Part shown: piece after piece, positions 14,325 to 41,407 of the stretch
How the letters are laid out: every line of letters starts with the position of its first letter
Numbering within the stretch: the stretch's first letter is position 1
From: Candidatus Levyibacteriota bacterium
Lineage (GTDB): Bacteria; Patescibacteriota; Microgenomatia; Levybacterales; UBA12049
Assembly: GCA_963722305.1 (NCBI GenBank)
Contig: CAVRKE010000002.1
Coordinates: 40,566 to 104,565 of the forward strand
DNA: 64,000 nucleotides
Direction of reading: 5' to 3'
Position numbers and translations under genes: made by a program
The notes under the pieces: model-generated
Seen by the model: only the letters and a program-made list of their open reading frames with translations
Database searches by the model: none
What the model was told of the DNA's origin: nothing

Positions 14325-14335
14325 AGATATTCATT

Positions 14336-18392: not shown

Positions 18393-18533
18393 ACAAAACT
18401 CTACAATCTACCCAGTTTCCAAAGGACTTTTTTTCACAAAGTGATTGCATTTACAACTTGTTTATGAAAAAATATATATAAGCTGTTATGCATACTAATC
18501 TAAATAGAAAAGCACTTATTCGTTACAATACCG

Positions 18534-19454: not shown

Positions 19455-19458
19455 AAAT

Positions 19459-21051: not shown

Positions 21052-21116
21052 TAAAAATTGCTGATTAGAAAGTTTTTCTTTTACCCGAAGCCTCTTAAAC
21101 TTTATAAAATAACGGC

Positions 21117-21647: not shown

Positions 21648-21660
21648 TTTTTCCTTCCTT

Positions 21661-22302: not shown

Positions 22303-22604
22303 AAAATATATTAAAGCTGTTTTTTTCTATTCAGCAAAATGTTATAGGATTATAGCACTCTTTTTGGAAATGTCAACAGTCAATCCTATAATACTAGCTT
22401 GAGCGTAAGCAACCATTAAACTAAAAGTAATTCCTTTGTTTTAAAACCGCAGCCAATAAAACCCTTTCTGCTTTTTTGAATAATAATTTAAAATTTATGC
22501 TGTAAATTAGATTACAAAATCCAAGTAATTATGTTTACTGAAAGGCTAATTCTTCATCACATATAGTTGATTTAGTAGAACTACACACTATATATATTAA
22601 GACT

Positions 22605-22847
22605 ATGGCACAAACACATCTTGTAAACGCTAAAGGGAATATTCATTCAACCAAAACGGTTTCGGATCACTTGATGCAAGAGCTGATTAGCGCCATGAAA
22701 GACGTGGACGCTTTTGGTAGCGTGGAGATTATGATTCAAGATTATGCGGTGACGCAAATAACGCACCGTTGCATTAGAAAAACAAATGGCTTCCATGAGG
22801 AAGAAACCATAAAGAAAATGAGTTACAAAATGCACCCGGAAGAATAA
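22605..22847 (+). CDS. Small YezD/DUF2292-like protein
   Basis: 80 aa. GSVEIMIQDYAVTQITHRCIRKT resembles the YezD motif. Followed by a strong terminator. Confidence 0.4.
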   Translation: MAQTHLVNAKGNIHSTKTVSDHLMQELISAMKDVDAFGSVEIMIQDYAVTQITHRCIRKTNGFHEEETIKKMSYKMHPEE

Positions 22848-22884
22848 TCTAAAGAAAAGCAGAGGTTATGCCGACCGCAACCGG

Positions 22885-22917
22885 AGGCACCCGTCGAAGA
22901 GGGTGCCTTTTTTTTTA
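22885..22917 (+). terminator. Intrinsic terminator AGGCACCC-GTCGAAGA-GGGTGCCT + T9
   Basis: Read from the sequence. Confidence 0.7.
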
Positions 22918-23009
22918 TTTAAAAATTAAACAAAAATATGTAGATTGATATACAAACAATATGGGATATAAATAAACATAAGTAAAAATAGACATATATC
23001 ATTTTATCA

Positions 23010-23273
23010 TTGACAAACTTAGCAGAATATGATATATATAAACACTCTGTCTTAACTATGAGATATAATAGTGGCAATAACGGTACTAATAAATTCCTGA
23101 CTGTACAGGAAGTCTCTTCTCTTCTGCGTCTGAGCATGCTGACGATTTATAAGTATATTAAAGAAGGAAAAATCTCCGTCGTCGAATTTGGCGGCCACTA
23201 CCGAATCAGCACTGCCTCACTAAATACTTTCATTCAAGAACATACTTTCGAAGAGAAAAAGGAGGAAAAGTAA
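23010..23273 (+). CDS. Excisionase-family helix-turn-helix DNA-binding protein
   Basis: FLTVQEVSSLLRLSMLTIYKYIKEGKISVVEFGGHYRISTASLNTFIQ (HTH_17/excisionase-type). Ends 1 nt before the GT megagene. Confidence 0.55.
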   Translation: MTNLAEYDIYKHSVLTMRYNSGNNGTNKFLTVQEVSSLLRLSMLTIYKYIKEGKISVVEFGGHYRISTASLNTFIQEHTFEEKKEEK

Positions 23274-23274
23274 G

Positions 23275-26274: not shown

Positions 26275-26302
26275 CGGAATTTCCCTTATTACCTTTCTTA
26301 CT

Positions 26303-26914
26303 TTGGATGTTATTCTGGTAAAACACTTTTTAACTCCAACGGCAGCGGGCCAATATGGGCTTCTGTCTTTAATTGGGAAAATGACTTACTTTCTCGGCTC
26401 GTTATTCGTACCTTTTGTAATCCCGATAATCTCTCACCATGAGGGAGCAAAGAAGAACAGCGAGCAGGTTTTTCTATTCCTCTTTGCTACAACATTTGCC
26501 TTTTGCGCCGCTTCATTTGTGGGACTGGGTTTATTGGGACAATACATTGTTCCGCTAATTTTTGGGGCAAAAACCCAAGCAATCATTCCCCTTCTGGCGC
26601 CATACGTTTTAGCCATGGCAATTTTTACAATATCGCAGCCTATTGTTTCCTATTTCCAGGCTAAAGAGAATTACTCTTTTACAATAGTCGGATTTTTAGT
26701 TGCACTTATCCAAATCGGTCTAACCTGTTTATTCCATGAAAACCTTGAGCAAATAGTTTTAGTCATGCTTACCACAAGCATTATTAATCTCACTTTAATG
26801 GCCCCGCTTTACGCTTTTCAGAAAGAAGTTAAAATAATAACTTCAAATCTTAAGGACTTTTACGGTCTCTTTAACTCTGTAAGGTGGAGAAAAAACCTGA
26901 ATACAATCCTTTAG
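26303..26914 (+). CDS. C-terminal half of the Wzx-like flippase (out of frame with the upstream ORF; frameshift or sequencing error)
   Basis: VILVKHFLTPTAAGQYGLLSL... is the polysacc_synt_C-type region. Deleting one T from TTTT at about 26243-26247 restores a continuous ...DRKFNLPFFLTSNLNGISLITFLTLDVILVKHFL... reading frame. Confidence 0.55.
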   Translation: MDVILVKHFLTPTAAGQYGLLSLIGKMTYFLGSLFVPFVIPIISHHEGAKKNSEQVFLFLFATTFAFCAASFVGLGLLGQYIVPLIFGAKTQAIIPLLAPYVLAMAIFTISQPIVSYFQAKENYSFTIVGFLVALIQIGLTCLFHENLEQIVLVMLTTSIINLTLMAPLYAFQKEVKIITSNLKDFYGLFNSVRWRKNLNTIL

Positions 26915-26929
26915 ACAAACTCAGAATTC

Positions 26930-28012
26930 TTGATTCTTAACTGGAGGGATACAAAGCATAAATGGGCAGGCGGAGCGGAGGTTTACGTCCATGAGCTGGC
27001 TAAACTTTGGGTCAAAGACGGAAATAGCGTCACGCTTTTTTGCGGAAACGATGGCCATGAGGTAAGAAACGAAGTCATTGACGGCATCCAAATCTACAGA
27101 CGCGGAGGGTTTTACACTGTTTATGTTTGGGCGCTTTTGTATTACCTGTTTCGCTTCAGGGGAAAATATGATGTGATTATTGATTCGGAAAACGGCATTC
27201 CCTTCTTTAGCCCGCTCTATGCAAATATTCATAAGTTTTTGCTTATTCATCATGTTCATCAGGAGGTGTTTAGAAAAAGCTTAAGGTGGCCGCTTTCAAC
27301 CATCGCCTTGTTCTTGGAGGCAAAGCTGATGCCTCTGGTTTACAGAAATGTACAGGTGGTCACTGTTTCACCTTCTTCCAAAGAGGAAATATTAAGGCAT
27401 GGGCTTACCAAAAAGGAACCACTCACTATTTATAACGGGGTTGACACTCTCAAGTTTAAACCCGGCCAAAAAAGCGAAAAACCGTTAGTCTTATACCTGG
27501 GAAGACTGCAGCGCTACAAGAGTTTGGATATTTTTATCAAAGCGGCTAAAGGAATTTTAGCACAAATTCCGGAGACTGAATTTGTCATTGCCGGAGAAGG
27601 AGGAGAAAAGATGCATCTAATTAAATTAGCCAAAAAAATGGGAATTTTAGACAAAATTAAATTCACCGGAAAAGTAACCGAGGAGGAAAAAATTGCACTT
27701 TTCCAAAAAGCCTGGGTTTTCATGAATCCCTCACTAATGGAAGGCTGGGGCATTACCACTATCGAGGCAAATGCCTGCGGTACACCAACCATCGCTTCCA
27801 ATGTTCCCGGGCTTAGGGACTCGGTCAGCAATTTAAAAACCGGAATTCTTGCCGATTATGGAAATAATGAAGCTTTTGCCCAAGACGCGATTATTCTTCT
27901 TCAAGACAAAATTTTAAGGAAAGAAATGTCTTTAAACGCTATTGAATGGGCCAAAAATATAGCTGGGAACAAAGCGCAATGGTCTTCTATGAGACATTAT
28001 CAAATCACTTAG
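26930..28012 (+). CDS. GT4 family glycosyltransferase
   Basis: Glycos_transf_1 motif EGWGITTIEANACGTPTIASNVPGLRDSV. Confidence 0.8.
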   Translation: MILNWRDTKHKWAGGAEVYVHELAKLWVKDGNSVTLFCGNDGHEVRNEVIDGIQIYRRGGFYTVYVWALLYYLFRFRGKYDVIIDSENGIPFFSPLYANIHKFLLIHHVHQEVFRKSLRWPLSTIALFLEAKLMPLVYRNVQVVTVSPSSKEEILRHGLTKKEPLTIYNGVDTLKFKPGQKSEKPLVLYLGRLQRYKSLDIFIKAAKGILAQIPETEFVIAGEGGEKMHLIKLAKKMGILDKIKFTGKVTEEEKIALFQKAWVFMNPSLMEGWGITTIEANACGTPTIASNVPGLRDSVSNLKTGILADYGNNEAFAQDAIILLQDKILRKEMSLNAIEWAKNIAGNKAQWSSMRHYQIT

Positions 28013-28084
28013 AAAGAAATCCAATCGTAAGAAGCAATGGATTAGCTTACGTACTGAACAGGTTTATGTCTTTATTGTAAAAAT

Positions 28085-29068
28085 ATGAAAAAATTAAAAA
28101 TCGCAATTATGGATATGGACAATCTTAAAAATCCTTTTTGGGGAGCCGGCCAAGCTAGGGTAACTAGAGAAGTGGGTAAAAGACTAGCAAAGAAGCATGA
28201 TGTAATTGTTTACAGCTCTAAATATCCCGGATATAAAGATTATGTTGAAGACGGAATAGTCTATAAACATATCGGAATAGTCAGTAAGAGCTCTAAGCTA
28301 ACAAACATTGCCTACTTATTAAGCGTTCCTTTGCAGGTCAGAAAAATAAAAGATGCCGATATTATTATTGAAGAATTTAACGCGCCAATTTCGGTAAGTT
28401 TTTCTCCGCTTTTTACAAAAATACCGATAATTGCGATTCCGACTATTTTTGCGGCAGAAAAATTTGCTAAGAAATATCATCTGCCTTTTGATTGGGTGGA
28501 GGCTATAGGCGTAAAATTGTATAAATATTTCCTGCCCTATTCTGCTACTGACAGCGGCAAAATAAAAAGACTGCATCCGAAAGCAATATATAAGATTGTA
28601 CCGGTAGGAGTCGGAGAAGAATATTTTGCCATAAAACATCTTAAGCCGGAATATATTCTGTTTTTAAGCAGATTTGATATCCACCAAAAGGGACTTGACT
28701 TGCTTTTGGACGCTTATGCAAAAATTTCCGATAAAATCGGCTATCCGCTTGTGCTGGCTGGGCACGGCTCAGACGAGCAAAAAGTCAGAGCCTTAATAAA
28801 GGAATTAAAACTTGAGAAAAAAATTAGCATAGTTGGTCCGGCATATGGGAAAAAGAAATTTGATTTAATCTCAAAAGCCATCTTTGTGGCGTTTCCTTCT
28901 AGATTTGACGAGTTATCTCTCTGGGCTCTTGAAGCATTGGCGTCGGGAATGCCTTTAGTGGCCTTTGATATACCTGAAGCAAACTGGTCGGACAAAAAGC
29001 GTCGCCTTAAAAGCAAAACCATTCGATACGGACGAATACGCAAAACTAATGCTAAAAGCAACGGATAA
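28085..29068 (+). CDS. GT4 family glycosyltransferase, with apparent frameshift near 28993-28997 (A5)
   Basis: FPSRFDELSLWALEALASGMPLVAFDIPEA is the GT4 EX7E region. The C-terminal tail is nonsense. The true C-terminus continues in the ORF at 28965-29201. Confidence 0.65.
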   Translation: MKKLKIAIMDMDNLKNPFWGAGQARVTREVGKRLAKKHDVIVYSSKYPGYKDYVEDGIVYKHIGIVSKSSKLTNIAYLLSVPLQVRKIKDADIIIEEFNAPISVSFSPLFTKIPIIAIPTIFAAEKFAKKYHLPFDWVEAIGVKLYKYFLPYSATDSGKIKRLHPKAIYKIVPVGVGEEYFAIKHLKPEYILFLSRFDIHQKGLDLLLDAYAKISDKIGYPLVLAGHGSDEQKVRALIKELKLEKKISIVGPAYGKKKFDLISKAIFVAFPSRFDELSLWALEALASGMPLVAFDIPEANWSDKKRRLKSKTIRYGRIRKTNAKSNG

Positions 29069-29201
29069 AAATCTCAATCAAACAATGCGCATAGCCGCAC
29101 GTAATTTGGCGAGAAAATATAACTGGGACGAGGTAACAAAAGATTTCGAAGACTTTTTCAAAGAAGTATTCAAAAGGGAGGGTAAATATGTACAAAGATA
29201 A
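28965..29201 (+). CDS. Displaced C-terminal segment of the preceding GT4 gene
   Basis: KSVALKAKPFDTDEYAKLMLKATDKNLNQTMRIAARNLARKYNWDEVTKDFEDFF is a typical GT4 C-terminus. Removing one A at 28993-28997 would join it to the upstream ORF. Confidence 0.45.
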   Translation: MIYLKQTGRTKSVALKAKPFDTDEYAKLMLKATDKNLNQTMRIAARNLARKYNWDEVTKDFEDFFKEVFKREGKYVQR

Positions 29202-29994
29202 AGTTTTTGTAACAAAAACATTTTTACCTCCGCTTGAGGAATATGTCAAATACTTAGAAAAAGTTTGGGATTCACGCTGGCTGACAAACAATGGGCAATT
29301 GGCCGTAGAGCTGGAAAATAAGCTGAGCGAATATCTTGGAGTCAAGCATGTAATTTTTGTCTCAAACGGAACAATCGCGATTCAGATGGCAATTAAAGCT
29401 CTGGATATTAAAAAAAGTATTATTACTACCCCACTCACTTTTATTGCTACCACTTCTTCTATTCTTTGGGAGAAATGCAAACCTGTTTTCGTTGACGTTG
29501 ATCCGAATACCTTTTGTATTGACCATACAAAAATAGAAGCAGCTATAACCGAAGACACAGAGGCAATCCTTGCCGTACACGTTTATGGATATCCCTGTAA
29601 CGTTAAAGAGATTGAAAAAATAGCCAGAAAACATAATCTAAAAGTTATTTATGATGCGGCACATGCCTTTGGAGTGAAAATTGATGGAGAATCCATATTT
29701 AAATTCGGCGATATCTCAACCCTTAGCCTGCATGCCACTAAACTTTTTCATACCGCTGAGGGGGGACTCGTCCTGACAAACAATGACGCATTGGCAAAAA
29801 AAATTGAACTGCTTAAGGATTTTGGCCTGGAAGGAGAAAACCCAATAGAAATAGGTATTAACGGAAAAAATTCCGAACTGCATGCGGCCCTGGGTTTAGC
29901 AAATTTTAAGCACCTAGACGAAATTAGAGAGTGCAGAAAAAAATTGTCGAAAAATACAAGGAACTGCTTTCGGGAACTAATCTTCATAATGTAA
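29188..29994 (+). CDS. DegT/DnrJ/EryC1/StrS-family PLP-dependent sugar aminotransferase (N-terminal ~250 aa; frame lost at an A7 tract 29937-29943)
   Basis: SLHATKLFHTAEGG contains the PLP lysine. The C-terminal 20 aa are nonsense after the A7 run. Confidence 0.7.
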   Translation: MYKDKVFVTKTFLPPLEEYVKYLEKVWDSRWLTNNGQLAVELENKLSEYLGVKHVIFVSNGTIAIQMAIKALDIKKSIITTPLTFIATTSSILWEKCKPVFVDVDPNTFCIDHTKIEAAITEDTEAILAVHVYGYPCNVKEIEKIARKHNLKVIYDAAHAFGVKIDGESIFKFGDISTLSLHATKLFHTAEGGLVLTNNDALAKKIELLKDFGLEGENPIEIGINGKNSELHAALGLANFKHLDEIRECRKKLSKNTRNCFRELIFIM

Positions 29995-31184
29995 GCTACT
30001 TTAATAACGTTGAATATAATTACGCTTATTTCCCGATTGTCTTTACTACGGAAAGCGATTTATTAAAAGCTGAAAAAGCACTTCGAGAACAAAATATCTT
30101 TGCCAGAAGATATTTTTATCCTTCCTTAAATACACTACCGTTTGTGGAATATATGCCATGCCCGAATTCCGAATCTATCGCAAAAAGAATTCTGTGTCTT
30201 CCTTTATATCACGATCTTCCGCTTGAAAAAGTCGAAGAAATAGCCGGCATTATTAAGGAAACTTTAGAAAAAAATAAACCGACTTTAACTGTCGGCATTC
30301 CTGCCCATAACGAGGAAGAAAATATCGTTAATTTAATTCAAGCAATATTAAACCAAAAAGACGGAAATTACGCTCTTCAAGAAATAGTTATTGCTTCCGA
30401 TGCCTCTACCGATAAAACAGTTTCTTTGGTAAATGAACTTCGGAAAAAAGACCCGAGAATAAAAGTTATTGGGAGTGAGACAAGAAGAGGCAAAACCTAT
30501 CGCTTAAATGAATTATACACCATGCATAATAGTGATTTTATTCTGACTTTGGATGGTGACGTTTTATTAAAAGATTCCGACTCTATTGAGAAAATGGTCA
30601 ATATCTTTTTGGAGGATAAAGATGCCTGCGTAGTCGCTGGTCATTTAAGACCGATTAAACCTGAGTCGTTTATTGGTAAGGTAATTTATACAAGCGACGT
30701 TTTGTGGGATACGGTAATAACGCAGATTAATAATGGAGACCATATTGCAAATCTTTATGGAGCCGCCCACATGTTAAGGAAAGATTTTTCAAAATCTTTT
30801 GTGTATCCGACAAATATTAGCTGCGATGAGGAATATCTATATATAAAGGCTAAAGAGAAGAATGGATTCCGCTACGCCAGAAATGTGTATATTCTATTTA
30901 TGGCGCCGGCAACCATCAAAGAAGTTATTTTGCAAGGCAGGAGGGCCTTAAAAGAGCGAAAAGCTTTAGTTGAAATATTTGGCAATGCTGTCCTTAAACT
31001 TCATCACGTTCCCATAAAATATAAACTTCAGGGGATCTTAAAAATGTTAGGTTCTAGCCCATTGTATACGATTTTATCCTTGTTACTAATGCTCGTTATA
31101 AAAGTTTTTCCATATGAAGATTCCCTTAATAAACAGGGGATGTGGCAAATTGCTTCTTCGACAAAGACTGTCACTGAAGCGTAA
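29931..31184 (+). CDS. DegT aminotransferase C-terminal domain fused in frame to a GT2 glycosyltransferase
   Basis: N-terminus KIVEKYKELLSG...ILCLPLYHDLPLEKVEEIAGI is the DegT C-terminus. TLTVGIPAHNEEENI...IASDASTDKT is a GT2, with no stop or start codon between them. One extra A in the A7 tract would give ...ECRKKIVEKYKELL... in frame with the 29188 ORF. Confidence 0.7.
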   Translation: MQKKIVEKYKELLSGTNLHNVSYFNNVEYNYAYFPIVFTTESDLLKAEKALREQNIFARRYFYPSLNTLPFVEYMPCPNSESIAKRILCLPLYHDLPLEKVEEIAGIIKETLEKNKPTLTVGIPAHNEEENIVNLIQAILNQKDGNYALQEIVIASDASTDKTVSLVNELRKKDPRIKVIGSETRRGKTYRLNELYTMHNSDFILTLDGDVLLKDSDSIEKMVNIFLEDKDACVVAGHLRPIKPESFIGKVIYTSDVLWDTVITQINNGDHIANLYGAAHMLRKDFSKSFVYPTNISCDEEYLYIKAKEKNGFRYARNVYILFMAPATIKEVILQGRRALKERKALVEIFGNAVLKLHHVPIKYKLQGILKMLGSSPLYTILSLLLMLVIKVFPYEDSLNKQGMWQIASSTKTVTEA

Positions 31185-31191
31185 ATAAACT

Positions 31192-32085
31192 ATGAACAAA
31201 AAGAGTATCGCAAAAAAAATAAGCATAACCATAGGAATTCCGGCTTACAACGAAGAAGCAAATATTGCTATGTTACTGGATAAAATCCTTCTGCAAAAAG
31301 GCAATAGTTTTGTCGTAAAAAAAATAATCGTCGTCTCGGATTCGGACTTGGACAACACTAATAAGATTGTGTCGGAATATAAAAATACAAAAATTCATTT
31401 GGTCGCTAACGCCAGCCGAAAAGGTCAAGTTTATGCACAAAATTTGATTTTTAAACTGGCCGATACCGATTTGGTAGTTTTGTTTGAAGCCGACACTTAT
31501 CCTGAAAATGAAGACTATCTATCGAACTTGATAAAACCTTTATTCAAAAATAAAAATGTCGGCCTAATTCAAGGATCAATGCAACCGTTAAAACCTAAAA
31601 CGATGATAGCAAAATGTTTAGCGATGCAATTTAAGATTTTTTCAAAAATTATGTTGACCTATCATTCCCAGAAGAATCCAATCCCTTCCGGAAGAGGTGG
31701 CCGGGCTTTTACAAAAACTGTCTACAAAAATCTTATTTGGCCAACTTCAGTTCCTGAAGATGAATATGCATATCTTTGGTGTGCTGCAAAAGGAATTGAA
31801 ACTATGCTTCAGAAATCTGCAATTTGTTATTTCCGATTACCTCAAACAGTTTCTGAATATATAAAATCTATGCAAAAAAATAAATCTGCGTCTATAACCA
31901 TTCATAAGTATTTTTCTTCGGAAATAATTTCTTCTACCATGTCTACTTCTTCTAGGGAAAAGGCGCTTATCTTCTTTTATTTTCTACTTGCAGATCCCGC
32001 ACTTTGCCTCAGATACATTTTTTTAAGAGTGGCCGTATGCTTTGGAACAAAAAATTTGGAGTTTACTGATTTTTGGACAACATAA
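31192..32085 (+). CDS. GT2 family glycosyltransferase (paralogue 2)
   Basis: ISITIGIPAYNEEANI...VVSDSDLDNTNKIV. Confidence 0.75.
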   Translation: MNKKSIAKKISITIGIPAYNEEANIAMLLDKILLQKGNSFVVKKIIVVSDSDLDNTNKIVSEYKNTKIHLVANASRKGQVYAQNLIFKLADTDLVVLFEADTYPENEDYLSNLIKPLFKNKNVGLIQGSMQPLKPKTMIAKCLAMQFKIFSKIMLTYHSQKNPIPSGRGGRAFTKTVYKNLIWPTSVPEDEYAYLWCAAKGIETMLQKSAICYFRLPQTVSEYIKSMQKNKSASITIHKYFSSEIISSTMSTSSREKALIFFYFLLADPALCLRYIFLRVAVCFGTKNLEFTDFWTT

Positions 32086-32089
32086 GAAT

Positions 32090-33025
32090 ATGAAAAAAAA
32101 TAAATTATATAAACTAAGTATTGGCATACCTGCTTATAACGAAGAAGAAGGCATCGAAAACTTGCTGAATTCTATACATCTCCAGAAACAAAAGTCTTAT
32201 GTTATAGAAAAAATTATCGTTGCTTCCGACGGAAGTACGGACAATACAGAAAGCATTGTCTCGAAGATATCTAAGAAGAAAAATAATGTCATGCTGGTGC
32301 CATACAAAAAAAGAGAAGGCAAGGCAGAGCGTCTTAATAATTTGTTAAAATTAAATAAGAGCGAAATTCTGCTAATTTTAGATGCAGATACCATATTGTC
32401 GGAAATATATATCTTAGAAAAGCTATTTAAGTATTTTAAAAAGGCAGAGGTAGGCATTGTCGGGTTAAATATGAAACCGGTTAATTCCGAAAAACTTATC
32501 GGAAAACTAATTAATACCTGGTATCAGTTGTGGTACGAGGTAAGAAAAAATGTCAATGGTGGCGATTCTATTCATAATATAAGAGGGGGAGCATTTGCGA
32601 TTCGGAAATCATTAGCCCAAGAAATTCAAATCCATAAAAATATTCAACAAGTGGGAAGACTTGCCTATCTTACATCGCATAAAAAGGGATTTACTTTTGC
32701 TTTTGCTAAAGATGCAATAATTTTATATCGGGCTCCCGATAATTTATCTGACTATATTTCAACCCTAACTAGAGGAGATAATATTGAAACAAATTATTTT
32801 GAAAAGGCTTTTGGTAAGGAAATTAATAAACAATATTCTGTACCGAGAGAAAATAAAATTAAAGCTTTACTTAAGATGATTATAAAAAATCCTGCTATGC
32901 TTATCTTATCTTTCTTGTTTATAAATGCGGCAAATATTTTAGCCAGGAATAAAAAAAGCTTAGATAATCATGGGTTTTGGCAAATAGCTTCTTCAACCAA
33001 AAGAAGCATTAATATTAATTTTTAA
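32090..33025 (+). CDS. GT2 family glycosyltransferase (paralogue 3)
   Basis: LSIGIPAYNEEEGI...VASDGSTDNTESIV. C-terminal FWQIASSTK shared with paralogue 1. Probable start ATG 32090 (MKKNKLYK). The ORF track gives 32042. Confidence 0.75.
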   Translation: MKKNKLYKLSIGIPAYNEEEGIENLLNSIHLQKQKSYVIEKIIVASDGSTDNTESIVSKISKKKNNVMLVPYKKREGKAERLNNLLKLNKSEILLILDADTILSEIYILEKLFKYFKKAEVGIVGLNMKPVNSEKLIGKLINTWYQLWYEVRKNVNGGDSIHNIRGGAFAIRKSLAQEIQIHKNIQQVGRLAYLTSHKKGFTFAFAKDAIILYRAPDNLSDYISTLTRGDNIETNYFEKAFGKEINKQYSVPRENKIKALLKMIIKNPAMLILSFLFINAANILARNKKSLDNHGFWQIASSTKRSININF

Positions 33026-33028
33026 GAG

Positions 33029-34558
33029 ATGAAAAGAATTTATTTAATATTTACTGTAATTATAATCATTCTGACAATTGCTTTTTTGACAGTGGCTATA
33101 CGTGGTAAAGCAGGTAATCCTATTGCTTATCAATCGGATTACAATACACAGCTCGGAGGACCATTTGAAGCTTCAAATAGCACTTCCAGATATGCTTTGA
33201 CTGAGGCAATAGTTAAAACCGGAACTTTTTTTCTCAATCCTACCCTTGCCCAATTTGGTTCTCCGGATGTAATTGTAAATAAAAAAGGGCAATATATTTC
33301 TATATTTACTCCGGGAGTATCCTTTATTGCAGTTCCATTTTATATTTTAGGTGAAAATTTTGGAATGCCGCAATTATTCACTTATTTATCTGTTTTCTTA
33401 ATTTCGGTTTTGAATGCTTTTTTAATCGCCAGATTGGCCTACAAGCTTGGGGCGAAATATTATACAAGTCTTTTAAGCGGTCTCATTTTTTTGTTTGCGA
33501 CAAATGCCCTACCGTATTCACAAACCCTCGCCCAGCATCAAGCCAGCGTTCTCGTAATTTTATTAAGCTTATTAAGCATATTTAGTCCCCCAACTTTACT
33601 CAAGAACATCATTCTAGGAATGCTATTTGGAATAGGAGCTTTAATTGACGTACCTAATGCTTTCTTTTTAATGCCCATCTTAATCTACGTTTTATTTCAG
33701 GATTTTAATCTCGAATCCAACGGTAAAAAGTTGGTTATGTTTTTCAAATTAAATATTTTAGGTCTTATTATAGGAGTAATTCCGTTTCTTGTGTTATTTG
33801 GTGTTTACAATAATATTACCACCGGGTCCTATTTTAAACTGGCACAAACAGGTGGACAACGCTTCTCGGTTACATCCGTAAACGGAAAAGCACCCGTAAG
33901 CACCTCAAATACATCTAATGGAACATTCTTTCTGCCATTTAACACTAGATATCAACTGAACGGCTTGTACACTTTGTTAATAAGTAATGAAAGAGCTTGG
34001 ATATATTATAGCCCCATTCTCTTCTTAGGACTTTTGGGAATTTTTGTTCTTTATAAAAATAGGAAGAATGATAAAGTTGCCATCATAATGGCATCCGTTA
34101 TCTTGACGAATATTATTGTCTATTCAATGTTTTCTGATCCATGGGGCGGATGGGCTTTCGGACCAAGATACCTAATACCAAGCGCTGCAATATTAAGCAT
34201 CTTTATTGGTATCGCCATAGAAAGGTACAAGCAAAATATTTTTTTCGCGGTAATCCTATTTGTTTTAACGGCATATAGTATTTTTGTAAGTTCTCTAGGA
34301 GCATTCACTACCACTGCTATTCCTCCAAAGCAGGAAGCGGAACATTTAATTACCCCTATTCCTTATACCTATCAGTATAATTTGGATTTACTCAACAAAA
34401 ATTTTTCAAGTTCTTTAATCTATAATTTGTACGTACCAAAAATAATAACTCCGCGAAACTTTTTATACATTTATACCGCGCTATTACTCCTCTTCTTTAG
34501 CGGAATTTACACTGCAGCCATAGTTGATAAGAACGAACAAGGAGAAGAAAATGAATAA
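33029..34558 (+). CDS. GT-C fold polytopic membrane glycosyltransferase (ArnT/PMT-like)
   Basis: 509 aa, about 12 TMs. First-loop region SRYALTEAIVKTGTFFLNP resembles the ArnT/PMT loop motif. Confidence 0.5.
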   Translation: MKRIYLIFTVIIIILTIAFLTVAIRGKAGNPIAYQSDYNTQLGGPFEASNSTSRYALTEAIVKTGTFFLNPTLAQFGSPDVIVNKKGQYISIFTPGVSFIAVPFYILGENFGMPQLFTYLSVFLISVLNAFLIARLAYKLGAKYYTSLLSGLIFLFATNALPYSQTLAQHQASVLVILLSLLSIFSPPTLLKNIILGMLFGIGALIDVPNAFFLMPILIYVLFQDFNLESNGKKLVMFFKLNILGLIIGVIPFLVLFGVYNNITTGSYFKLAQTGGQRFSVTSVNGKAPVSTSNTSNGTFFLPFNTRYQLNGLYTLLISNERAWIYYSPILFLGLLGIFVLYKNRKNDKVAIIMASVILTNIIVYSMFSDPWGGWAFGPRYLIPSAAILSIFIGIAIERYKQNIFFAVILFVLTAYSIFVSSLGAFTTTAIPPKQEAEHLITPIPYTYQYNLDLLNKNFSSSLIYNLYVPKIITPRNFLYIYTALLLLFFSGIYTAAIVDKNEQGEENE

Positions 34559-36248
34559 AATTAAAAAATATCAAACAACAATAAAGAGTTTTTTTCAAAC
34601 TTTTGCTGTTCCATGGATCAGCAAAAACGAGATGGAAATAGATATCCCCCTCAATGAAGAGGCTAATAGTAAGGTTTTAAATATTTTAAAAACACATACG
34701 GTTTTGTTTTTACTTATCATCTTATCGGTGGTATCAATTACCAGTTTTATCGTCTTCTACTTTAACCACTTGGGCTTGGCTTATAATGACGCCCGCTCAC
34801 ATCTTGACATCGGACGGCGTGTGGTGGAAGGATTAAAACCCGGTTTTGCACAACTCGGAAGCGTTTGGCTTCCCCTACCCCATCTTTTAATGGTTTTAAC
34901 TATCTGGAATGATTTCATGTGGCATTCTGGTCTTGCCGGTGCTTTACAGTCAATGATTTCCTTTGTGGCAACCGGCTATTTAATTTATCTGTTTCTTAAA
35001 AAATTAGGCGTTGGACTGGTTGGCCGGTTGGTCGGTGTTTTTATTTTTGCGGCCAACCTGAATATTTTGTATTTACAATCCACCGCTATGACAGAACTCT
35101 TACTGATCGCCACCATGATGGCCGGGGTTTATGAGCTCTTAAACTGGTTTAATAACGATAAAATTTTAAGTTTGATAAAAGCGGCTTTTTGGATTATGCT
35201 TTCAACCTTAATCCGCTACGACGGCTGGTTCTTGCTGGTCCTGGCAACCTTGCTTATCGGAATTCAGGTGCTGCGTAAAAAAGGCTATAAGGCCTCCGAA
35301 GGCACTGTGATTTTGTTTGCAACCCTGGCCGGCTTTGGAATAGTGTTATGGGTTTTCTGGAATTGGTTAATTTTTAAAGACCCTTTGTATTTTATTTTCG
35401 GCCCTTATGCCGCTGCTACACAGCAACAGCAACTGGCAGCGGCCGGAGTGCTTGCAACCAAGGGGAATTTATTATTCTCCATAAAAGTATATCTTTACGC
35501 TTTACTCTATAACTCCAACGCCTTCGTGACAATTCTTGGCACAATCGGAGCAATTGTCTTCTGGTTTGATAAAAGAATAAATCTTTCGGTAAAAATTGGC
35601 TCGCTGACGCTTTTGGCGCCGCTGATTTTTAATATTCTCGCTCTCTATCTTGGCCAGTCCGTACTTTTTATCCAGGGCCTATCCGGAAACACCTGGTTTA
35701 ACGTCCGCTACGGAATAATGGTTATGCCGTCCATTGCCATATTCATCGGCTATCTTGTCAACAGATTTAAAGACCTGCGTGCAGTAATGATTGGACTGCT
35801 ATTGTTTGTGCTTTTCTTTTCGTTTGCCAATGCCGATGCGGTAACAATTGACGATGCCAGAGTCGGTTCCAGCCAGAAAAATGTCTCGGAAGTTTCCGGC
35901 TGGCTTAATAAAAATGCCAAGGATAAGCCGGGGTTTGTTTTAATCTCTGCCGCCAGCCATGACGCGGTTATTTTTTCCTCCGGCCTGCCGATGAGCAAAT
36001 TTATTCATGAAGGAACGGGTGAGTATTGGCTTGATGCCACCACCTCACCTGACAGATGGGCACGCTGGATTGTGATGCGCACAAATGATGTAAATGACTC
36101 AACGTTTAAACTGGTGAGTAAATCGACTGCCTACAGAAATGGCGACTATACTTTAGTTAACCACTATCCTTTTGCCGATATCTATCAGTTGAAACCGCAA
36201 TTTATTAAGTATTTGCACACCACGCCTATTTTGGGCAAACAAAGATGA
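34551..36248 (+). CDS. Polytopic membrane protein with C-terminal soluble domain, GT-C-like (putative glycosyltransferase)
   Basis: First-loop motif YNDARSHLDIGRRVVEG...LGSVWLPLPHLL, multi-TM core and about 150-aa C-terminal extracellular domain. Probable start ATG 34551 behind AAGGAGAAG. The ORF track gives 34524. Confidence 0.4.
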   Translation: MNKIKKYQTTIKSFFQTFAVPWISKNEMEIDIPLNEEANSKVLNILKTHTVLFLLIILSVVSITSFIVFYFNHLGLAYNDARSHLDIGRRVVEGLKPGFAQLGSVWLPLPHLLMVLTIWNDFMWHSGLAGALQSMISFVATGYLIYLFLKKLGVGLVGRLVGVFIFAANLNILYLQSTAMTELLLIATMMAGVYELLNWFNNDKILSLIKAAFWIMLSTLIRYDGWFLLVLATLLIGIQVLRKKGYKASEGTVILFATLAGFGIVLWVFWNWLIFKDPLYFIFGPYAAATQQQQLAAAGVLATKGNLLFSIKVYLYALLYNSNAFVTILGTIGAIVFWFDKRINLSVKIGSLTLLAPLIFNILALYLGQSVLFIQGLSGNTWFNVRYGIMVMPSIAIFIGYLVNRFKDLRAVMIGLLLFVLFFSFANADAVTIDDARVGSSQKNVSEVSGWLNKNAKDKPGFVLISAASHDAVIFSSGLPMSKFIHEGTGEYWLDATTSPDRWARWIVMRTNDVNDSTFKLVSKSTAYRNGDYTLVNHYPFADIYQLKPQFIKYLHTTPILGKQR

Positions 36249-37249
36249 AAAAAAATACACTTTTTAAAATAATTATTTTTGTCATCATGGTTGGCATTAT
36301 TTGTGCTGCTGCATATTTGGGACAACAATCTTTCACTCCCGGTAGCACAACCATCTGGAGTTTCCAGTCTATTGATACGATGAAGTATTCACGGGATTTA
36401 AGCAGACAAGAACTGGATAATACTTCCTTTGACGCAGTGATAGATACGCAGATCAAAAATATCGCCGCTACCGGAGCGACCTACGTGGCAATCGACACTC
36501 CGTACGACGAAGAATTTTTTCCCATGCTGCAAAGATGGGTAGCAGCTGCCAGAAAATATAATCTTAAGGTTTGGTTTAGAGGCAATTGGTCCGGCTGGGA
36601 AGGCTGGTTTGGCTATTCAAAAATTGACAGACAAACTCACATTGCAAAAACTAAACAGTTTATTCTAGAACACAGCGCTATATTTCAAGACGGCGATGTC
36701 TTTACCGCTTGTCCGGAATGCGAGAACGGCGGACCGGGCGACCCCAGAGTAACCGGAGACATTGCGGGATACAGACAATTTCTTATCGACGAATATCAAG
36801 TTACCAAAGCGGCTTTTAAGCAAATCGGTAAAAATGTCGCTTCAAATTATGACTCGATGAATGGTGATGTTGCAACTGTGGTAATGAATAAATCAACCAC
36901 AAAAGCACTTGACGGAATTGTGACCATTGACCATTATATCGCCACTCCCGAACAACTGGCGGCTAAAGTTGCGGCGCTTACAAAGCAGTCCGGCGGAAAG
37001 ATCGTCCTTGGGGAATTTGGGGTGCCTATCCCAAACGTTAATGGAGATATGACCGAGGACCAACAGGCTGCCTGGATTTCGCGCGCCTTGCAACTACTGG
37101 AAAACACGCCTAATGTTGTCGGCATGAATTATTGGACCAATGTCGGCAGCAGCACGGCCCTTTGGAATGACGACGGAAGCGAAAGAAAAGCGGTGTCGGC
37201 AATTAAGAGTTTTTATAACGTAAGGCTCGTTCAAGGTATTACCCGCTGA
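36245..37249 (+). CDS. Membrane-anchored putative glycoside hydrolase (TIM-barrel, GH5-like)
   Basis: N-terminal TM anchor. Candidate nucleophile motif VLGEFGVP and upstream acidic ECENGGP. Weak family assignment. Confidence 0.35.
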   Translation: MKKNTLFKIIIFVIMVGIICAAAYLGQQSFTPGSTTIWSFQSIDTMKYSRDLSRQELDNTSFDAVIDTQIKNIAATGATYVAIDTPYDEEFFPMLQRWVAAARKYNLKVWFRGNWSGWEGWFGYSKIDRQTHIAKTKQFILEHSAIFQDGDVFTACPECENGGPGDPRVTGDIAGYRQFLIDEYQVTKAAFKQIGKNVASNYDSMNGDVATVVMNKSTTKALDGIVTIDHYIATPEQLAAKVAALTKQSGGKIVLGEFGVPIPNVNGDMTEDQQAAWISRALQLLENTPNVVGMNYWTNVGSSTALWNDDGSERKAVSAIKSFYNVRLVQGITR

Positions 37250-37310
37250 AAAATCTTATCTTCTTAAGATAAAATTTGACAAAGAGTTTTTAAAGGAGTA
37301 CAAAAAGCTT

Positions 37311-37718
37311 ATGAAAAAGGCAGGGTTTTTGGTTATTCCTCTGCTGCTTTTAATCTTTTCTGCTCATTCTTCTTTTGCCGATAATGTACAAACCGGCAAT
37401 GTCGTAGACGCCCAAAGTACGGTTGAAAATAATGTCCAGGGAAGCGGTTCTGTTACCACCCATATCGAAACCTCGGCCAACGGACAAACCAATGTGATAG
37501 ACACCAACGGCAACGGCACGGTAAACGTCACTAACAACAACGGTAATGTGAGCATCACTAAAACTCCCGACGTAAACATTACCCAAACCCAAGTTGAGAC
37601 ACAAATTTCCACCCCAACACCAAAAATCACGCCGCCAATTATTCATAAACCTTCCTTGATGTCAAATATTTTTACCAACATTACCGATTTCATCAAACGC
37701 GTATTTCGCGATCTCTAA
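37311..37718 (+). CDS. Secreted Asn/Thr-rich small protein (hypothetical)
   Basis: Signal peptide MKKAGFLVIPLLLLIFSAHSSFA. N/T/V-rich low-complexity sequence. Confidence 0.4.
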   Translation: MKKAGFLVIPLLLLIFSAHSSFADNVQTGNVVDAQSTVENNVQGSGSVTTHIETSANGQTNVIDTNGNGTVNVTNNNGNVSITKTPDVNITQTQVETQISTPTPKITPPIIHKPSLMSNIFTNITDFIKRVFRDL

Positions 37719-37736
37719 AAGGAAGGAGGTGAAATA

Positions 37737-38813
37737 ATGAATTTTAAAAAATCTATAATCGTGGCCGCTGCGGGAACGCTATTATTTGGAGCTCTTGCAA
37801 CCGGCGTCTTCGCGACCTCGGGAAATTTCAGAGACTGGAATTGGTTCCAGCATAATAATCACTATAACGGTAATAATAAAAATTTCAATGCCGATATCCA
37901 GCTGCAGAAATCACAGTGTGGACAAAATTTAGGCAAACCAATTATTGATGTAACGTTAAAGACTCAAAATGATGTTGATGACGGATACAACACTAACGCC
38001 GACAACGTTGAGAGTAATTGGGCTTTTGATTATTACAATAAACATATCCAGGTCTGGCCAACCGGGACATGGAACGTAACAGGAACATATACGTTCGATA
38101 CTATATACTTAGGCAACCCTTATAACTATTCCGTAACTTTGTCTCAAAGCGTAAATATAATTACGGGTAGTTTGGACGATAGCTATGGACCGGGCGTATT
38201 GCCTATAATTAATGGTTCCTTATCCGGTAATACGATTACGTTTTCGGTGAACTATGGTTCCAGTTCTTCGCAAGGTACAAGAACCTTTACGGGCACCATT
38301 GATTCGTCCGGACACATGACGGGTAAATGGACCGAAACCGGACCGGAAAAAGGTTCTGACACCTGGTCAGCCACAGTCGGAGTAGCGACAATCAGTAATA
38401 GTTACTGTGCTGTTGTTACTTATGACGGGCAATTCTATGCCATCCCGGGACAACTTAGTCCTGGTTACGGATACAATGCCCAAATTGGTTCGCCTGTAAA
38501 TGGCGATATGGACGGAGGATATAGAGCGACTTTCAATGCTACTTTTGCGCCAAGCGATTTACCGAACTGGCCAACAAACGGAAAAGTTGCATCAACTATT
38601 AATAACGCCTGCGTAGTTTATCTTAGCAAGGATAACGGAAATAACTGTAAGGGCGCTGTTGATTGGTTAAGTAAATACTTTACTTCCACAGAAGTTCCGG
38701 CTTTTAATTCTTTTAACGAAGTATGGTGGGGCTGGAAATATGATGGCGGAAGTCATGGAACTTGGATTGACGCAAGCGATCTTACAAACGGAAGCTTGGG
38801 GAATATCCAATAG
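37737..38813 (+). CDS. Secreted hypothetical protein
   Basis: Signal peptide. 358 aa, Gly/Asn/Thr/Trp-rich, with no recognisable catalytic motif. Confidence 0.4.
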   Translation: MNFKKSIIVAAAGTLLFGALATGVFATSGNFRDWNWFQHNNHYNGNNKNFNADIQLQKSQCGQNLGKPIIDVTLKTQNDVDDGYNTNADNVESNWAFDYYNKHIQVWPTGTWNVTGTYTFDTIYLGNPYNYSVTLSQSVNIITGSLDDSYGPGVLPIINGSLSGNTITFSVNYGSSSSQGTRTFTGTIDSSGHMTGKWTETGPEKGSDTWSATVGVATISNSYCAVVTYDGQFYAIPGQLSPGYGYNAQIGSPVNGDMDGGYRATFNATFAPSDLPNWPTNGKVASTINNACVVYLSKDNGNNCKGAVDWLSKYFTSTEVPAFNSFNEVWWGWKYDGGSHGTWIDASDLTNGSLGNIQ

Positions 38814-38830
38814 TATATTAACCTACTCTA

Positions 38831-38860
38831 AAACAGACGGATTAAACCCCGTCTGTTTTT
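38831..38860 (+). terminator. Intrinsic terminator AACAGACGG-ATTAAACC-CCGTCTGTT + T6
   Basis: Read from the sequence. Confidence 0.65.
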
Positions 38861-39050
38861 TATTTAAAAATTGATAATTAGGTTTAAAAAAACTCTTTTA
38901 GTAAAGAATCCTTTTATTTAAATATCTCTGATTCCCCATTATTGTAAATCAAGTTTTTGTTATCATCTAAAAAATCTTCCGGCGCTTTGGTTTCGGAGAA
39001 TACTGCCGGTATATTTGACTCTCTAGCTATTTCTGCTAGAATGGCCGAGC

Positions 39051-40058
39051 ATGAAAGACGGAGAAAGGAGGCTGGGGCTTTTTGCCACGTTGGCATACGC
39101 AGCAGCAGTCGCTGTTTCTTGTCGCGGAGGTGGCATGGCTCCAAGAACTCCAAGCGTGCCATCGCCAGTCGGTCCTGGTCCGACAGAAATGTTACGCTCA
39201 CCAACAATAGCACCAACGACAGCACCGATTTTAGAACTGACTCCAACGCCTGACAGTAGTAATCCCTCCGGTGTGGCAATGCCGGTTGGTGATATTCCCG
39301 GCTGGCACATGATATTTAGCGATGATTTCAACGCGAATGTACCGGTCGGAGAATTTAGTGGCTGCAGACCTTCTCCTCCTCTAGTTTGTAGGGGACTTCC
39401 TGCTAGCGTACGGGCAAAATGGTGGGCTTATCCGGACGGATGGCCCGACACCAGCGGAAACGGTGAGTATTATCCTTCAACGGTGTTAAGCGAGGAAGGT
39501 AGTATATTAAATATGCATCTTCATACGGCGGATGGAATTCATATGGTAGCAGCTCCGGTGCCTTTATTGCCAAAGCAAGACACTGTTGGCAGTGAAGGCG
39601 GATTGGAATATGGCCGTTATGTGATTCGTTTCCGTGCTGATGCAATCTCCGGTTACAAAACTGCCTGGTTACTCTGGCCGGAAAGCGAAAACGGGCTTAA
39701 AGATGGGGAAATCGATTTTCCCGAAGGGAACCTAACCGGCAACATTGACGCCTTTATGCATTGGCAGAACGGAACATCAGGAAAATCTCATGACGCCTAT
39801 ATGACCGACATAACCTATACGGTCTGGCATACGGCAGAAATTGACTGGACGCCGACATCGGTAACTTTTTTACTTGATGGGGTAAAAGTTGGAGAATCAA
39901 CCGCCAAAATACCCGATACGCCAATGCACTGGGTGCTGCAGACCGAAACATCAACCGTCGGCCCAGTCCCAACTAATACAGCTTCGGGAAATGTTCAAGT
40001 TGATTGGGTTGCCGTATATGTACCCAGTAACAACCCGCAGCCGCAAGCTGCTTTCTGA
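39051..40058 (+). CDS. Glycoside hydrolase family 16-like lipoprotein (beta-glucanase/laminarinase type)
   Basis: Lipoprotein signal RRLGLFATLAYAAAVAVSC. Pro/Thr linker. GH16 catalytic motif E-x-D-x-x-E in DGEIDFPEG. The region is GC-rich relative to its surroundings. Confidence 0.65.
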   Translation: MKDGERRLGLFATLAYAAAVAVSCRGGGMAPRTPSVPSPVGPGPTEMLRSPTIAPTTAPILELTPTPDSSNPSGVAMPVGDIPGWHMIFSDDFNANVPVGEFSGCRPSPPLVCRGLPASVRAKWWAYPDGWPDTSGNGEYYPSTVLSEEGSILNMHLHTADGIHMVAAPVPLLPKQDTVGSEGGLEYGRYVIRFRADAISGYKTAWLLWPESENGLKDGEIDFPEGNLTGNIDAFMHWQNGTSGKSHDAYMTDITYTVWHTAEIDWTPTSVTFLLDGVKVGESTAKIPDTPMHWVLQTETSTVGPVPTNTASGNVQVDWVAVYVPSNNPQPQAAF

Positions 40059-40716
40059 TCCTTTTTTGTCTGTCCATTACTTTTACCTCTAAATCATAAT
40101 TCCTACGGCTTTTGTAAATTAAGCCTATTCCCCCGGGTAATTTATGGGTTGTGACCCGCGTCGCATGATCTACGATTTAGGACGTACACTTGTGGTTCGA
40201 GTCTTGAGCCGGAGGAAAATTCAGTATCGCTGGACTAATCACGGAGTATAATTCCTAGTAGCTGGAAACCCTTTGCTGATAGAGAAGATTTATCGTCTTC
40301 TCTGCAAGTTTATCCAGCAAACTATTGTAAACTGCTAAAAATTTAGCAGATATCTTTAATAAAATGTTAACCCGTATGCTGTTTCTTTTCATATCTTCAA
40401 TCTATAACCCTTACCTTAAATTTTGCTTAAAACTTGTAGCTTGTCTTTTTCCAATTGCCAATAGCCTACTACAGTTTACGTCAAATATTGCTCCACCGTT
40501 TTTTCTGCTTGACAAAGCAATCTAAAAGAGATAAAGTTTACCTACACTAAGTCTGCCTCATTGTTAGGAACTGTCCACGAATCATCTGCCAACTGCCAAA
40601 AAAATCTACTGCCTGGTTAATTAAAAATTAATTTAGGAACAGAAAAATTTAAAAAAATCTTTAGACTTATGGATTCGACAAATAACGGAAACTTATTTGT
40701 TAAGAGGCTAAGTGCA

Positions 40717-40757
40717 AACCGATGTTTATATAGCGGAGATAAAGCATCGGTTTTTTT
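40717..40757 (+). terminator. Strong intrinsic terminator (AACCGATGTTTAT-loop-ATAAAGCATCGGTT + T7)
   Basis: Read from the sequence. Ends a ~700-nt non-coding stretch. Confidence 0.6.
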
Positions 40758-40814
40758 GTGGAAAATACATAAATTTAATTAATTAAACTTATGACGAAGG
40801 GAGGTGAAATATAA

Positions 40815-41231
40815 ATGAAAAAACTTTTAATAACAGGAGCAGCCGCAGGACTTTTATTAGTTTCTGCAGCAGCAGCTTTTGCTAAACCACCTATGCCAGG
40901 AACATCCAACATGGCATTTGTTACCAGCAACGTTAGCGCATCTTCCGTAACAGGAGGAAATAGTACCAGCGCAACTTGGGGTAGCAATAGAGTTACAACG
41001 GGAAATGCCTACTCAACAGCAGGAGCAGGTACTCTTGCTAATACAAACGTCGGAGGCGGAAACGCATCCAATACTGCGTTTGTTCTCAGCAATGTTGGTG
41101 CAGGTTCCTCAACAGGAGGAAACTCGACAGTCGCATCTGGGTTTGGTAGCAATACCGTTACAACGGGAAATGCCCACTCAACAGCAGGAGCGCTGACCGT
41201 GGTTAACACCAACCTGTCATTCGGTAGATAA
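40815..41231 (+). CDS. Small secreted protein made of two ~50-aa N/T/S/G-rich repeats (novel repeat family)
   Basis: Signal peptide. Repeat units NMAFVTSNVSASSVTGGNSTSATWGSNRVTTGNAYSTAGAGTLANTN and NTAFVLSNVGAGSSTGGNSTVASGFGSNTVTTGNAHSTAGALTVVNTN. Confidence 0.5.
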   Translation: MKKLLITGAAAGLLLVSAAAAFAKPPMPGTSNMAFVTSNVSASSVTGGNSTSATWGSNRVTTGNAYSTAGAGTLANTNVGGGNASNTAFVLSNVGAGSSTGGNSTVASGFGSNTVTTGNAHSTAGALTVVNTNLSFGR

Positions 41232-41407
41232 ACCGAAATTCTTTTTTGTCCCTGGGGAAGAGGTATGCCTTAGGCACTCTTCCCCGGGACGAAAGAATTT
41301 ACCCTGTTAAATGCTATAGCGCTGCACCAGCTTTGCCGGTATTTAACAGGGTGAACCCGCAGGGCGGGAAGATTTAAGAAATAAGATTTAGGATTTAAGA
41401 ATTAAAA

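Follow-up and report, generated by a model that had tools for sequence, protein, structure and literature searches.

A gene for a predicted secreted enzyme of glycoside hydrolase family 16 (GH16) was analysed in a 64-kb stretch of DNA from a Candidatus Levybacteria bacterium (contig CAVRKE010000002.1; the whole stretch is hereafter called the window). The gene (39051..40058, + strand), taken as the longest open reading frame (ORF) and encoding 335 amino acids, was identified by using the ORF list, Pfam, an AlphaFold2 (AF2) model and Foldseek. With moderate probability, its product is a membrane-tethered, secreted GH16 endo-beta-glycanase, the gene having been acquired laterally and inserted in a surface locus, and its raised GC content being due to the encoded amino acids; this reading is based on sequence analysis and structural modelling. 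The host, which an earlier note on this DNA had described as resembling the candidate phyla radiation (CPR), was recognised as a member of the Levybacteria by the Lon protein (8277-10655), which has a 100% identical counterpart on a contig of 679,204 bp and shares 83% identity with proteins from metagenome-assembled genomes (MAGs) of Candidatus Levybacteria.

According to the mechanism proposed here, the Levybacteria lineage would have gained the gene laterally, with insertion between two native surface-protein genes and without recognisable mobility genes, after which the gene would have taken on the synonymous-codon GC content of the host and a host-style promoter. The product would be secreted as a retaining endo-beta-glycanase of GH16 fold (a predicted activity), probably tethered by an N-terminal lipid anchor and spaced from the membrane by a disordered Pro/Thr/Ser linker of ~50 residues. 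Outside the cell, the enzyme may cleave polymers of the beta-1,3(/1,4)-glucan type, and the oligosaccharides thus freed could feed the fermentation encoded nearby (POR, ADP-forming acetyl-CoA synthetase and NiFe hydrogenase). The glucan scavenging suggested in the earlier note may thus be taken as a reasonable inference.

Fold, catalytic residues and N-terminal region

The protein was divided into a lipoprotein-type signal (residues 1-24), a disordered linker rich in Pro, Thr and Ser (residues 25-76) and a GH16 beta-jelly-roll domain (residues 77-326). The Pfam family Glyco_hydro_16 (PF00722) was matched over residues 181-320 (48.3 bits against a cutoff of 22, E=1e-12). In the AF2 model (95 sequences), residues 75-325 were obtained as an all-beta structure with a predicted local distance difference test (pLDDT) score >93, and residues 1-70, with a pLDDT <65, were predicted to be disordered. 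The top 50 fold matches in the PDB by Foldseek were GH16 enzymes only, with target-normalised template-modelling scores of 0.38-0.80; laminarinases were ranked first (ZgLamA 4bow/4bq1, E 2e-13; 3atg), followed by Rv0315-type proteins and lichenases. The GH16 identity proposed in the earlier note was borne out by Pfam, the AF2 fold, Foldseek and the conserved catalytic triad, and the product, as judged from sequence and model, is a GH16-fold enzyme and a new member of a known family. A look-up of the 335-aa protein and of the 358-aa protein encoded upstream returned no exact-product record.

The catalytic motif E220-I-D222-F-P-E225 (39708..39725, + strand), of the beta-bulge EXDXXE type, was located by homolog conservation and by the alignment with ZgLamA, and the E-I-D-F-P-E string pointed to earlier is indeed there, within G219-E-I-D-F-P-E-G226. 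P224, E225, H237 and W209-P210 do not vary in the 94 closest homologs, of which 93 keep E220 and 92 keep D222. The catalytic machinery is strongly implied by this conservation, with E220 as the predicted nucleophile, D222 as the predicted helper and E225 as the predicted acid/base. The family profile aligns WPxDGEIDFPE of the GH16 clade with WPACGEIDILE of ZgLamA (4bq1). Laminarinase-like subfamilies are known to combine an EXDXXE strand carrying a beta-bulge with a conserved His and a WP...WPX pattern (Viborg et al., PMC6827312). The gene belongs to a large, laminarinase-like and uncharacterised clade marked by WPxDGEIDFPEG, whose members are patchily distributed among Actinomycetota, Chloroflexota, Myxococcota and Saccharimonadia from soil and sediment. 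Literature searches on Levybacteria glycoside hydrolases, on GH16 in Saccharibacteria or Corallococcus and on CPR lipoproteins gave nothing specific to this clade.

With the GH16_3 laminarinases (ZgLamA 4bow/4bq1 and the Cellulosimicrobium cellulans endo-1,3-beta-glucanase 3atg), the product shares the beta-jelly-roll fold, predicted secretion, the beta-bulge EXDXXE strand (GEIDILE in ZgLamA, GEIDFPE here), the conserved His, which corresponds to the invariant H237, and the WP...WPX pattern, which is found in the consensus of its clade. It differs from them in that the WPA...WXX...WPX series is incomplete, the third WPX being missing in the window copy; in that the identity is 15-21%, the profile E value ~1e-5 and the Pfam match confined to the C-terminal half; and in that it has Phe-Pro inside the catalytic motif and a Cys-Cys loop insert at residues 104-113. 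The Bacillus/Paenibacillus lichenases (GH16_21; 3wvj, 3o5s, 1gbg), which were the best single-sequence PDB matches (E 2e-4), have the same fold and the same positions of the nucleophile and the Asp, but their motif is EXDXE without the beta-bulge and they are ~40 residues shorter; the NCBIfam BglS model gave 23 bits against a cutoff of 300. The mycobacterial Rv0315-type proteins (GH16_9; 4wzf, 4xdq, 5dxd) resemble the product in an actinobacterial-type secreted GH16 fold and in a similar Foldseek rank; unlike Rv0315, which is called a 'pseudo-glucanase' in the title of entry 4wzf, the window gene has its catalytic residues intact.

A putative signal peptide with the lipobox A-V-S-C24 (39051..39122, + strand) was detected by a regular-expression scan, and it is translated only from ATG 39051. 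From this start, the n-region, h-region and lipobox of MKDGERRLGLFATLAYAAAVAVS-C24 fit a PROSITE PS51257-style rule, and the N-terminus MKDGERRLGLFATLAYAAAVAVSC is the sole one in the window to satisfy the PROSITE-type lipobox rule among the ORFs of at least 80 aa. The homologs bear signal peptides or lipoboxes together with low-complexity linkers, and in P0012, P0060, P0064 and P0087 the lipobox is at the equivalent position. Export of the product is strongly implied, and its lipidation may be proposed. The linker (52 residues) consists of 48% Pro+Thr+Ser by count from the translation, in agreement with the Pro/Thr linker described in the earlier note. The gene span of 38950-40060 given there holds as far as an intact ORF on the + strand is concerned, but its start was placed ~100 nt too far upstream.

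A promoter-like site, TTGACT-16-(TG)C-TAGAAT (39015..39042, + strand), was found by sequence scan to end 8 nt before ATG 39051 and would suit an mRNA with a short leader or none. The string TGCTAGAAT, which ends 8 nt before 39051, is found again ahead of the native gene 45433, at a distance of 6 nt. Over the window, a TATAAT-like -10 box ends 4-12 nt upstream of the start in 8/55 genes (2.9 expected), and a Shine-Dalgarno (SD)-like motif of any kind was found in 13/55; the analysis suggests that leaderless or short-leader mRNAs are frequent in this Levybacterium. The starts with such features include those of 1779-2201 (-), 18534, 39051, 43595-44197 (-) and 45433. The upstream gene is followed by an intrinsic terminator with an 11-bp stem and a T-run (38830..38866, + strand; hairpin scan), and because of this terminator and the promoter-like site at 39015, the GH16 gene is regarded as a transcription unit of its own.

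Probable lateral acquisition, base composition and assembly

Lateral acquisition of the gene by the Levybacteria lineage from an unrelated bacterium is well supported by sequence comparison, namely because of its distribution and phylogeny. The homolog survey covered the best 80 of 348 GTDB species-representative matches and the best 120 of 1797 database matches, the latter number being that of all database homologs of the GH16 protein. Among the matches listed, none outside the own population exceeded ~68% identity over the catalytic domain. The best non-self matches (60-68% identity) were on contigs with a GC content of 0.50-0.70, the best ones of 0.63-0.66, and the nearest homologs, with 60-64% identity in the trimmed catalytic-domain alignment, span five phyla, their groups including Chloroflexota, Actinomycetota, Myxococcota and Saccharimonadia. 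The best 80 of the 348 species-representative matches were assigned to Actinomycetota, Chloroflexota, Myxococcota and some Saccharimonadia, and no Microgenomates were present among them or among the named top matches. The best matches therefore lie in other phyla and on contigs of GC 0.50-0.70, and not in the same phylum at a similar GC content, which is the outcome that the earlier note had said would speak against its proposal of horizontal acquisition.

For comparison with close relatives, a panel of 80 Levybacteria-like metagenome contigs (L081-L160) recovered through the nearby DHODH gene was used, and GH16 was found in 0/80 of them. The contigs reaching through the locus (L082, L084, L093, L098, L102) are without GH16 there by tblastn synteny, and in L084 an s135-like gene is directly followed by an s138-like gene. 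In contrast, the native neighbour 36245 has graded Microgenomates homologs with 78-56% identity. The tree constructed by the neighbour-joining (NJ) method was star-like with the phyla interleaved, and the window sequence was on a long terminal branch. The horizontal acquisition put forward earlier is thus sustained by the absence of the gene from the 80 relatives and by nearest homologs in other phyla. Its supposed 'Actinobacteria-like' origin is not, the closest sequences being from five phyla and no sister group exceeding 10% bootstrap. The linker style, once read as a foreign sign, also has to be given up: because the native 727-aa surface protein at 41408 contains DTPTPTVDPS repeats, Pro/Thr linkers are native to this genome.

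An ancestral presence of the gene in Levybacteria or Microgenomates, with loss from the sampled relatives and no transfer, was also weighed. The host-like GC at third codon positions (GC3), the host-style promoter and the lack of mobility signatures would be in keeping with it, and losses would be plausible because the locus is hypervariable. However, no Microgenomates homolog was found among the matches listed; the closest sequences (60-68%) are of other phyla, whereas the neighbour 36245 has Microgenomates relatives at 78% and below; and the family tree interleaves phyla, with the Saccharimonadia sequences scattered. An ancestral gene is therefore held to be improbable, and lateral acquisition is preferred. 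The GH16 homologs from Saccharimonadales MAGs (P0045/L043, L028, L072, L076 and L080) are likewise in CPR genomes and in the same clade (46-59% identity), but they are of another CPR class and dispersed over the tree, none of them as the sister of the window gene, and they would therefore represent independent acquisitions rather than CPR ancestry.

Glycoside hydrolases of CPR bacteria have been catalogued before (Danczak 2017, PMC5581439). Secreted hydrolases are often transferred laterally, and the present finding, an ordinary case in which a CPR bacterium would have received such a gene in a variable surface locus, would add little alone.

The GC content of the gene is 0.504 against 0.413 for the window, and the gene lies within the highest 1-kb bin. 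Its GC3 of 0.426 is at the level of the window as a whole (mean 0.408 +/- 0.065), and the excess is located in codon positions 1 and 2 (0.562 and 0.524, respectively). The GC content expected from its amino acids and the host codon usage was 0.518 against 0.505 observed (difference -0.013, sd 0.023), and the codon-fit z of -2.54 (window mean -0.25, sd 1.49) was low but not that of an outlier. Other secreted-protein genes of the window reach a GC content of 0.48-0.50. Among the homologs, the GC content of the gene tracks that of the host, and in AT-rich hosts it is likewise above that of the surroundings (L072: 0.41 and 0.35, respectively). Because GC3 is at the window mean and the host-codon expectation is 0.518, there is no compositional island, and the raised GC follows from the many Gly, Pro, Ala and Trp residues of a protein encoded between AT-rich intergenic spacers. 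The gene is GC-richer than its surroundings, as had been noticed earlier, but by GC3 and expected GC it is no compositional anomaly, and the shift is lost as evidence for transfer, being fully explained by the amino-acid composition. Either the gene has been fully ameliorated or it came from a donor that was not rich in GC. The gene can serve as a worked example of how amino-acid composition alone can make one gene of an AT-rich genome locally rich in GC, and GC3 and expected-GC tests should precede any call of an 'island'.

Two other regions of the window were noted for their composition. Four glycosyltransferase-type genes at 29931-34558 (+) are 0.03-0.04 below the GC predicted from their amino acids; they form the clearest compositional outlier block near the GH16 gene, and a stronger one than the GH16 gene itself. 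At 6589-7290 (-), a 233-aa low-complexity ORF rich in Ala, Pro, Thr, Glu and Gly has a GC content of 0.507, as high as that of the GH16 gene, with GC1 0.68, GC2 0.59 and GC3 0.25.

The continuity of the DNA was assessed with a second assembly (L001; ENA ERZ25039473 contig_174004), which is 99.4% identical and has the GH16 gene joined to 10 kb of native downstream genes. Between L001 and window positions 38877-50063, 36 mismatches and 24 indels were counted over 11.2 kb. One of the indels is an extra C which frameshifts the GH16 gene and leads to a 259-aa call, and another difference cuts the 727-aa gene call to 434 aa; these differences are probably homopolymer errors of a long-read assembly. 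L001 stops in the upstream terminator region, its last 42 nt being noisy. This end, ~40 nt from the left border and near 38835-38877, is what could be cited for an assembly chimera, or for a contaminant joined to a Levybacteria contig. Such an artefact is nevertheless highly improbable, since the independent assembly carries the gene in an unbroken stretch with 10 kb of native Levybacteria genes in syntenic order, the noisy last 42 nt still resemble the upstream terminator region of the window, GC3 and codon usage are host-like, and the source contig is 679 kb long.

Points against the proposal and other readings of the protein

Several points weigh against a tethered, laterally acquired endo-beta-glycanase, among them the extent of the homolog survey given above, beyond which more distant Microgenomates homologs may exist. 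With regard to the origin, no sister group of the window sequence was obtained at >10% bootstrap by NJ, so that the donor is not placed; no tRNA was found in the window by scan, the flanking repeats are short, AT-rich and at chance level only, and domain scans of the GH16 neighbours gave no integrase or transposase domain.

With regard to the substrate, the identity to solved GH16 structures by Foldseek against the PDB does not exceed 15-21%, and specificities within GH16 are widely spread (PMC6827312). In addition, the window copy lacks the WPX motif beside the nucleophile. In the alignment of the 94 closest homologs, G215-L216 (39693..39698, + strand) replaces an aromatic-Pro dipeptide, residue 215 being aromatic in 93/94 homologs and residue 216 Pro in 94/94; the family consensus is W206..W209-P210-D...W215-P216-x, and the window copy reads G215-L216-K217. 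The WPX motif borders the negative subsites (PMC6827312), and its loss could result in altered specificity or reduced activity. Among 62 species-representative homologs, ~3-4, more distant ones, are likewise without the motif.

It was considered whether the copy is impaired or decaying after transfer and at most a glycan-binding surface protein, like the pseudo-glucanase Rv0315. The lost WPX (G215-L216), the 5 deviations at 86 conserved positions, the long terminal branch and the presence of Rv0315 among the structural matches would fit this. Set against them, E220, D222, E225 and H237 are all kept, five deviations are not unusual for the family (mean 2.8, maximum 8), WP is also missing from a few of its other members, and the ORF is intact and the same in two assemblies if the extra C of L001 is the homopolymer error that it probably is. 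Decay is accordingly thought improbable, and an active GH16 enzyme is preferred. Only slightly less doubtful is a proposal in which the WPxDGEIDFPEG clade would be an uncharacterised GH16 subfamily of non-laminarinase specificity, captured in repeated, independent events by CPR epibionts as a tethered surface tool for opening host envelopes or feeding on them. The captures would have taken place several times in Saccharimonadia and once in Levybacteria, with a bacterial or fungal cell-wall glycan, for example, as the target, and the change from WPX to GLK in Levybacteria would represent a rebuilt negative-subsite loop, i.e. host-specific retuning. If it is true that the enzyme acts on a host cell wall, this would bear on the feeding mode of Microgenomates.

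With regard to export, the gene call on the source contig begins at the alternative internal start M29 (39135..39137, + strand; 307-aa product P0241), which gives a protein without signal peptide, and Lgt and LspA gave no match in the window or the compared loci by tblastn with approximate E. coli queries, a search that is uninformative for the genome. The lipobox claimed in the earlier note is present, but it exists only with the start at 39051, whereas the source call is at M29. With translation from M29, the protein would be cytoplasmic or non-classically exported and the lipobox an untranslated coincidence. This is unlikely, but it deserves more weight than the readings discussed so far beside the preferred one, as GGAGGTG is located just upstream of 39135 and no SD motif was found ahead of ATG 39051. 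However, an SD-like motif is present in only the 13/55 genes mentioned above, and GGAGGTG represents the Gly codons GGA GGT GGC with a spacing of 2-4 nt, against 6-9 nt for the clear SD motifs in this window. Moreover, the 28 codons upstream of M29 provide a complete n-h-c signal with a lipobox, the sole one in 64 kb, the homologs are secreted, and the -10 box is 8 nt upstream of 39051. Upstream of M77, the homologs share a PSG motif in the same frame. Because of the homolog architecture, the in-frame PSG, the few SD genes, the Gly-codon nature of GGAGGTG and the -10 box, the start at 39051 is favoured over that at 39135, and a signal peptide was probably missed in the annotated gene start. 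A start at M77, as in the 259-aa ENA protein P0001, was tried and rejected, since an extra C in a C-run frameshifts that contig and the upstream PSG is conserved in frame.

The surface locus and neighbouring genes

The GH16 gene lies within a 28-kb lineage-specific expansion of a hypervariable cell-surface locus (13428..41407), which was delimited by tblastn synteny against L082-L102 and is bounded by the conserved genes 12013-13335 and 41408-45382. The gene order in relatives is Lon, 10890, 12013, variable surface genes, the 727-aa surface protein, MFS and DHODH, and 0.2-6.6 kb separate the homologs of 12013 from those of the MFS gene 43595 in these relatives; in the window, the interval 13428-41407 measures 28 kb. 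The locus is regarded as a hypervariable cell-envelope locus because relatives hold 0.2-6.6 kb of variable surface genes where the window holds 28 kb; in L084, for instance, the order is sortase, s135-like, s138-like and s727-like. The 28-kb interval contains surface proteins, a sortase-like gene, a 13-kb glycan-biosynthesis cluster (23275-36248) with GT2, GT4, DegT and GT-C-like genes, the GH-A-like gene 36245 and the GH16 gene. After the GH-A-like hydrolase, the order is s135, the 358-aa secreted protein, GH16, a 756-nt spacer and s138. In the run of hydrolases and surface proteins described in the earlier note, 36245, 37311, 37737, 40815 and 41408 do have signal-like or transmembrane-like N-termini, but only two of the proteins are hydrolase-like. 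The other GH16 neighbours had no recognisable domain in domain scans, and PDB sequence searches with the neighbours 36245 and 37737 gave nothing useful. The expanded locus would be a place in Levybacteria where genes shaping the contact with the environment or a host accumulate.

The position of the gene, 2.8 kb downstream of the glycan cluster and on the same strand, raises the possibility that the enzyme trims or remodels the surface glycan made by the cluster, like PslG, BcsZ and CcsZ, and is not a nutrient scavenger. GT2 or GT1 genes are also found beside a few homologs, accounting for 4 and 2, respectively, of 114 flanking ORFs. This role is rather unlikely, since the strong terminator and the separate promoter-like site isolate the GH16 gene from the cluster, two unrelated secreted-protein genes lie in between, and the cluster already has a translationally coupled GH-A-like hydrolase at 36245. 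Furthermore, the GH16 homologs have no conserved genomic context, 120 different families being counted among their 114 flanking ORFs. Cleavage of external glucans is therefore kept as the proposed role.

The GH-A-like gene (36245-37249, + strand) encodes 334 aa with an N-terminal transmembrane helix and a predicted (beta/alpha)8 barrel of clan GH-A (pLDDT 90), whose fold resembles PslG, CcsZ, GH5, GH53 and GH10 at 10-16% identity. E158, E160 and N161 (CPECENGG) and E257 (LGEFG) are invariant. The protein has 2304 homologs, the named ones all from Patescibacteria or Microgenomates, and belongs to no Pfam family. The ATG of the gene overlaps the stop of the GT-C-like gene 34524-36248, and the product is probably the processing hydrolase of the glycan cluster itself, from an uncharacterised CPR family.

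The 756-nt spacer downstream of GH16 (40059..40814) has no convincing ORF by sequence scans. It contains an element of ~60 nt at 40160-40218 (ATCTACGATTTAGGACGTACACTTGTGGTTCGAGTC...), which is 82-92% conserved in one related contig (L099 2622-2681) and is followed by TATAAT in both the window and L099; downstream of it, an alpha/beta-hydrolase-like ORF is present in L099 and nothing in the window. Farther along in the spacer come a promoter-like site (40509-40537) and a strong terminator hairpin (40716-40753). From its sequence, the element may be an orphan promoter, a leader or a small RNA. Its reading as a tRNA T-arm, on the basis of the GGTTCGAGTC contained in it, was rejected, as neither T-arm pairing nor a covariance-model match was found. 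Rfam gave no match for the spacer at E<=1 (38800-41450 searched) or for the whole window at the gathering threshold, apart from a chance HIV_FS2 match at 41244-41294. At 41244-41297 (+), between the genes of the 138-aa and 727-aa surface proteins, there is a strong hairpin with 21-bp arms, which is likely a terminator or attenuator, the HIV_FS2 match being a sub-threshold chance one.

Further downstream, a 949-aa ORF (47988-50837, + strand) combines the CoA_binding, Succ_CoA_lig and ATP-grasp_5 domains of an ADP-forming acetyl-CoA synthetase with C-terminal FAD_binding_6 and NAD_binding_1 domains.

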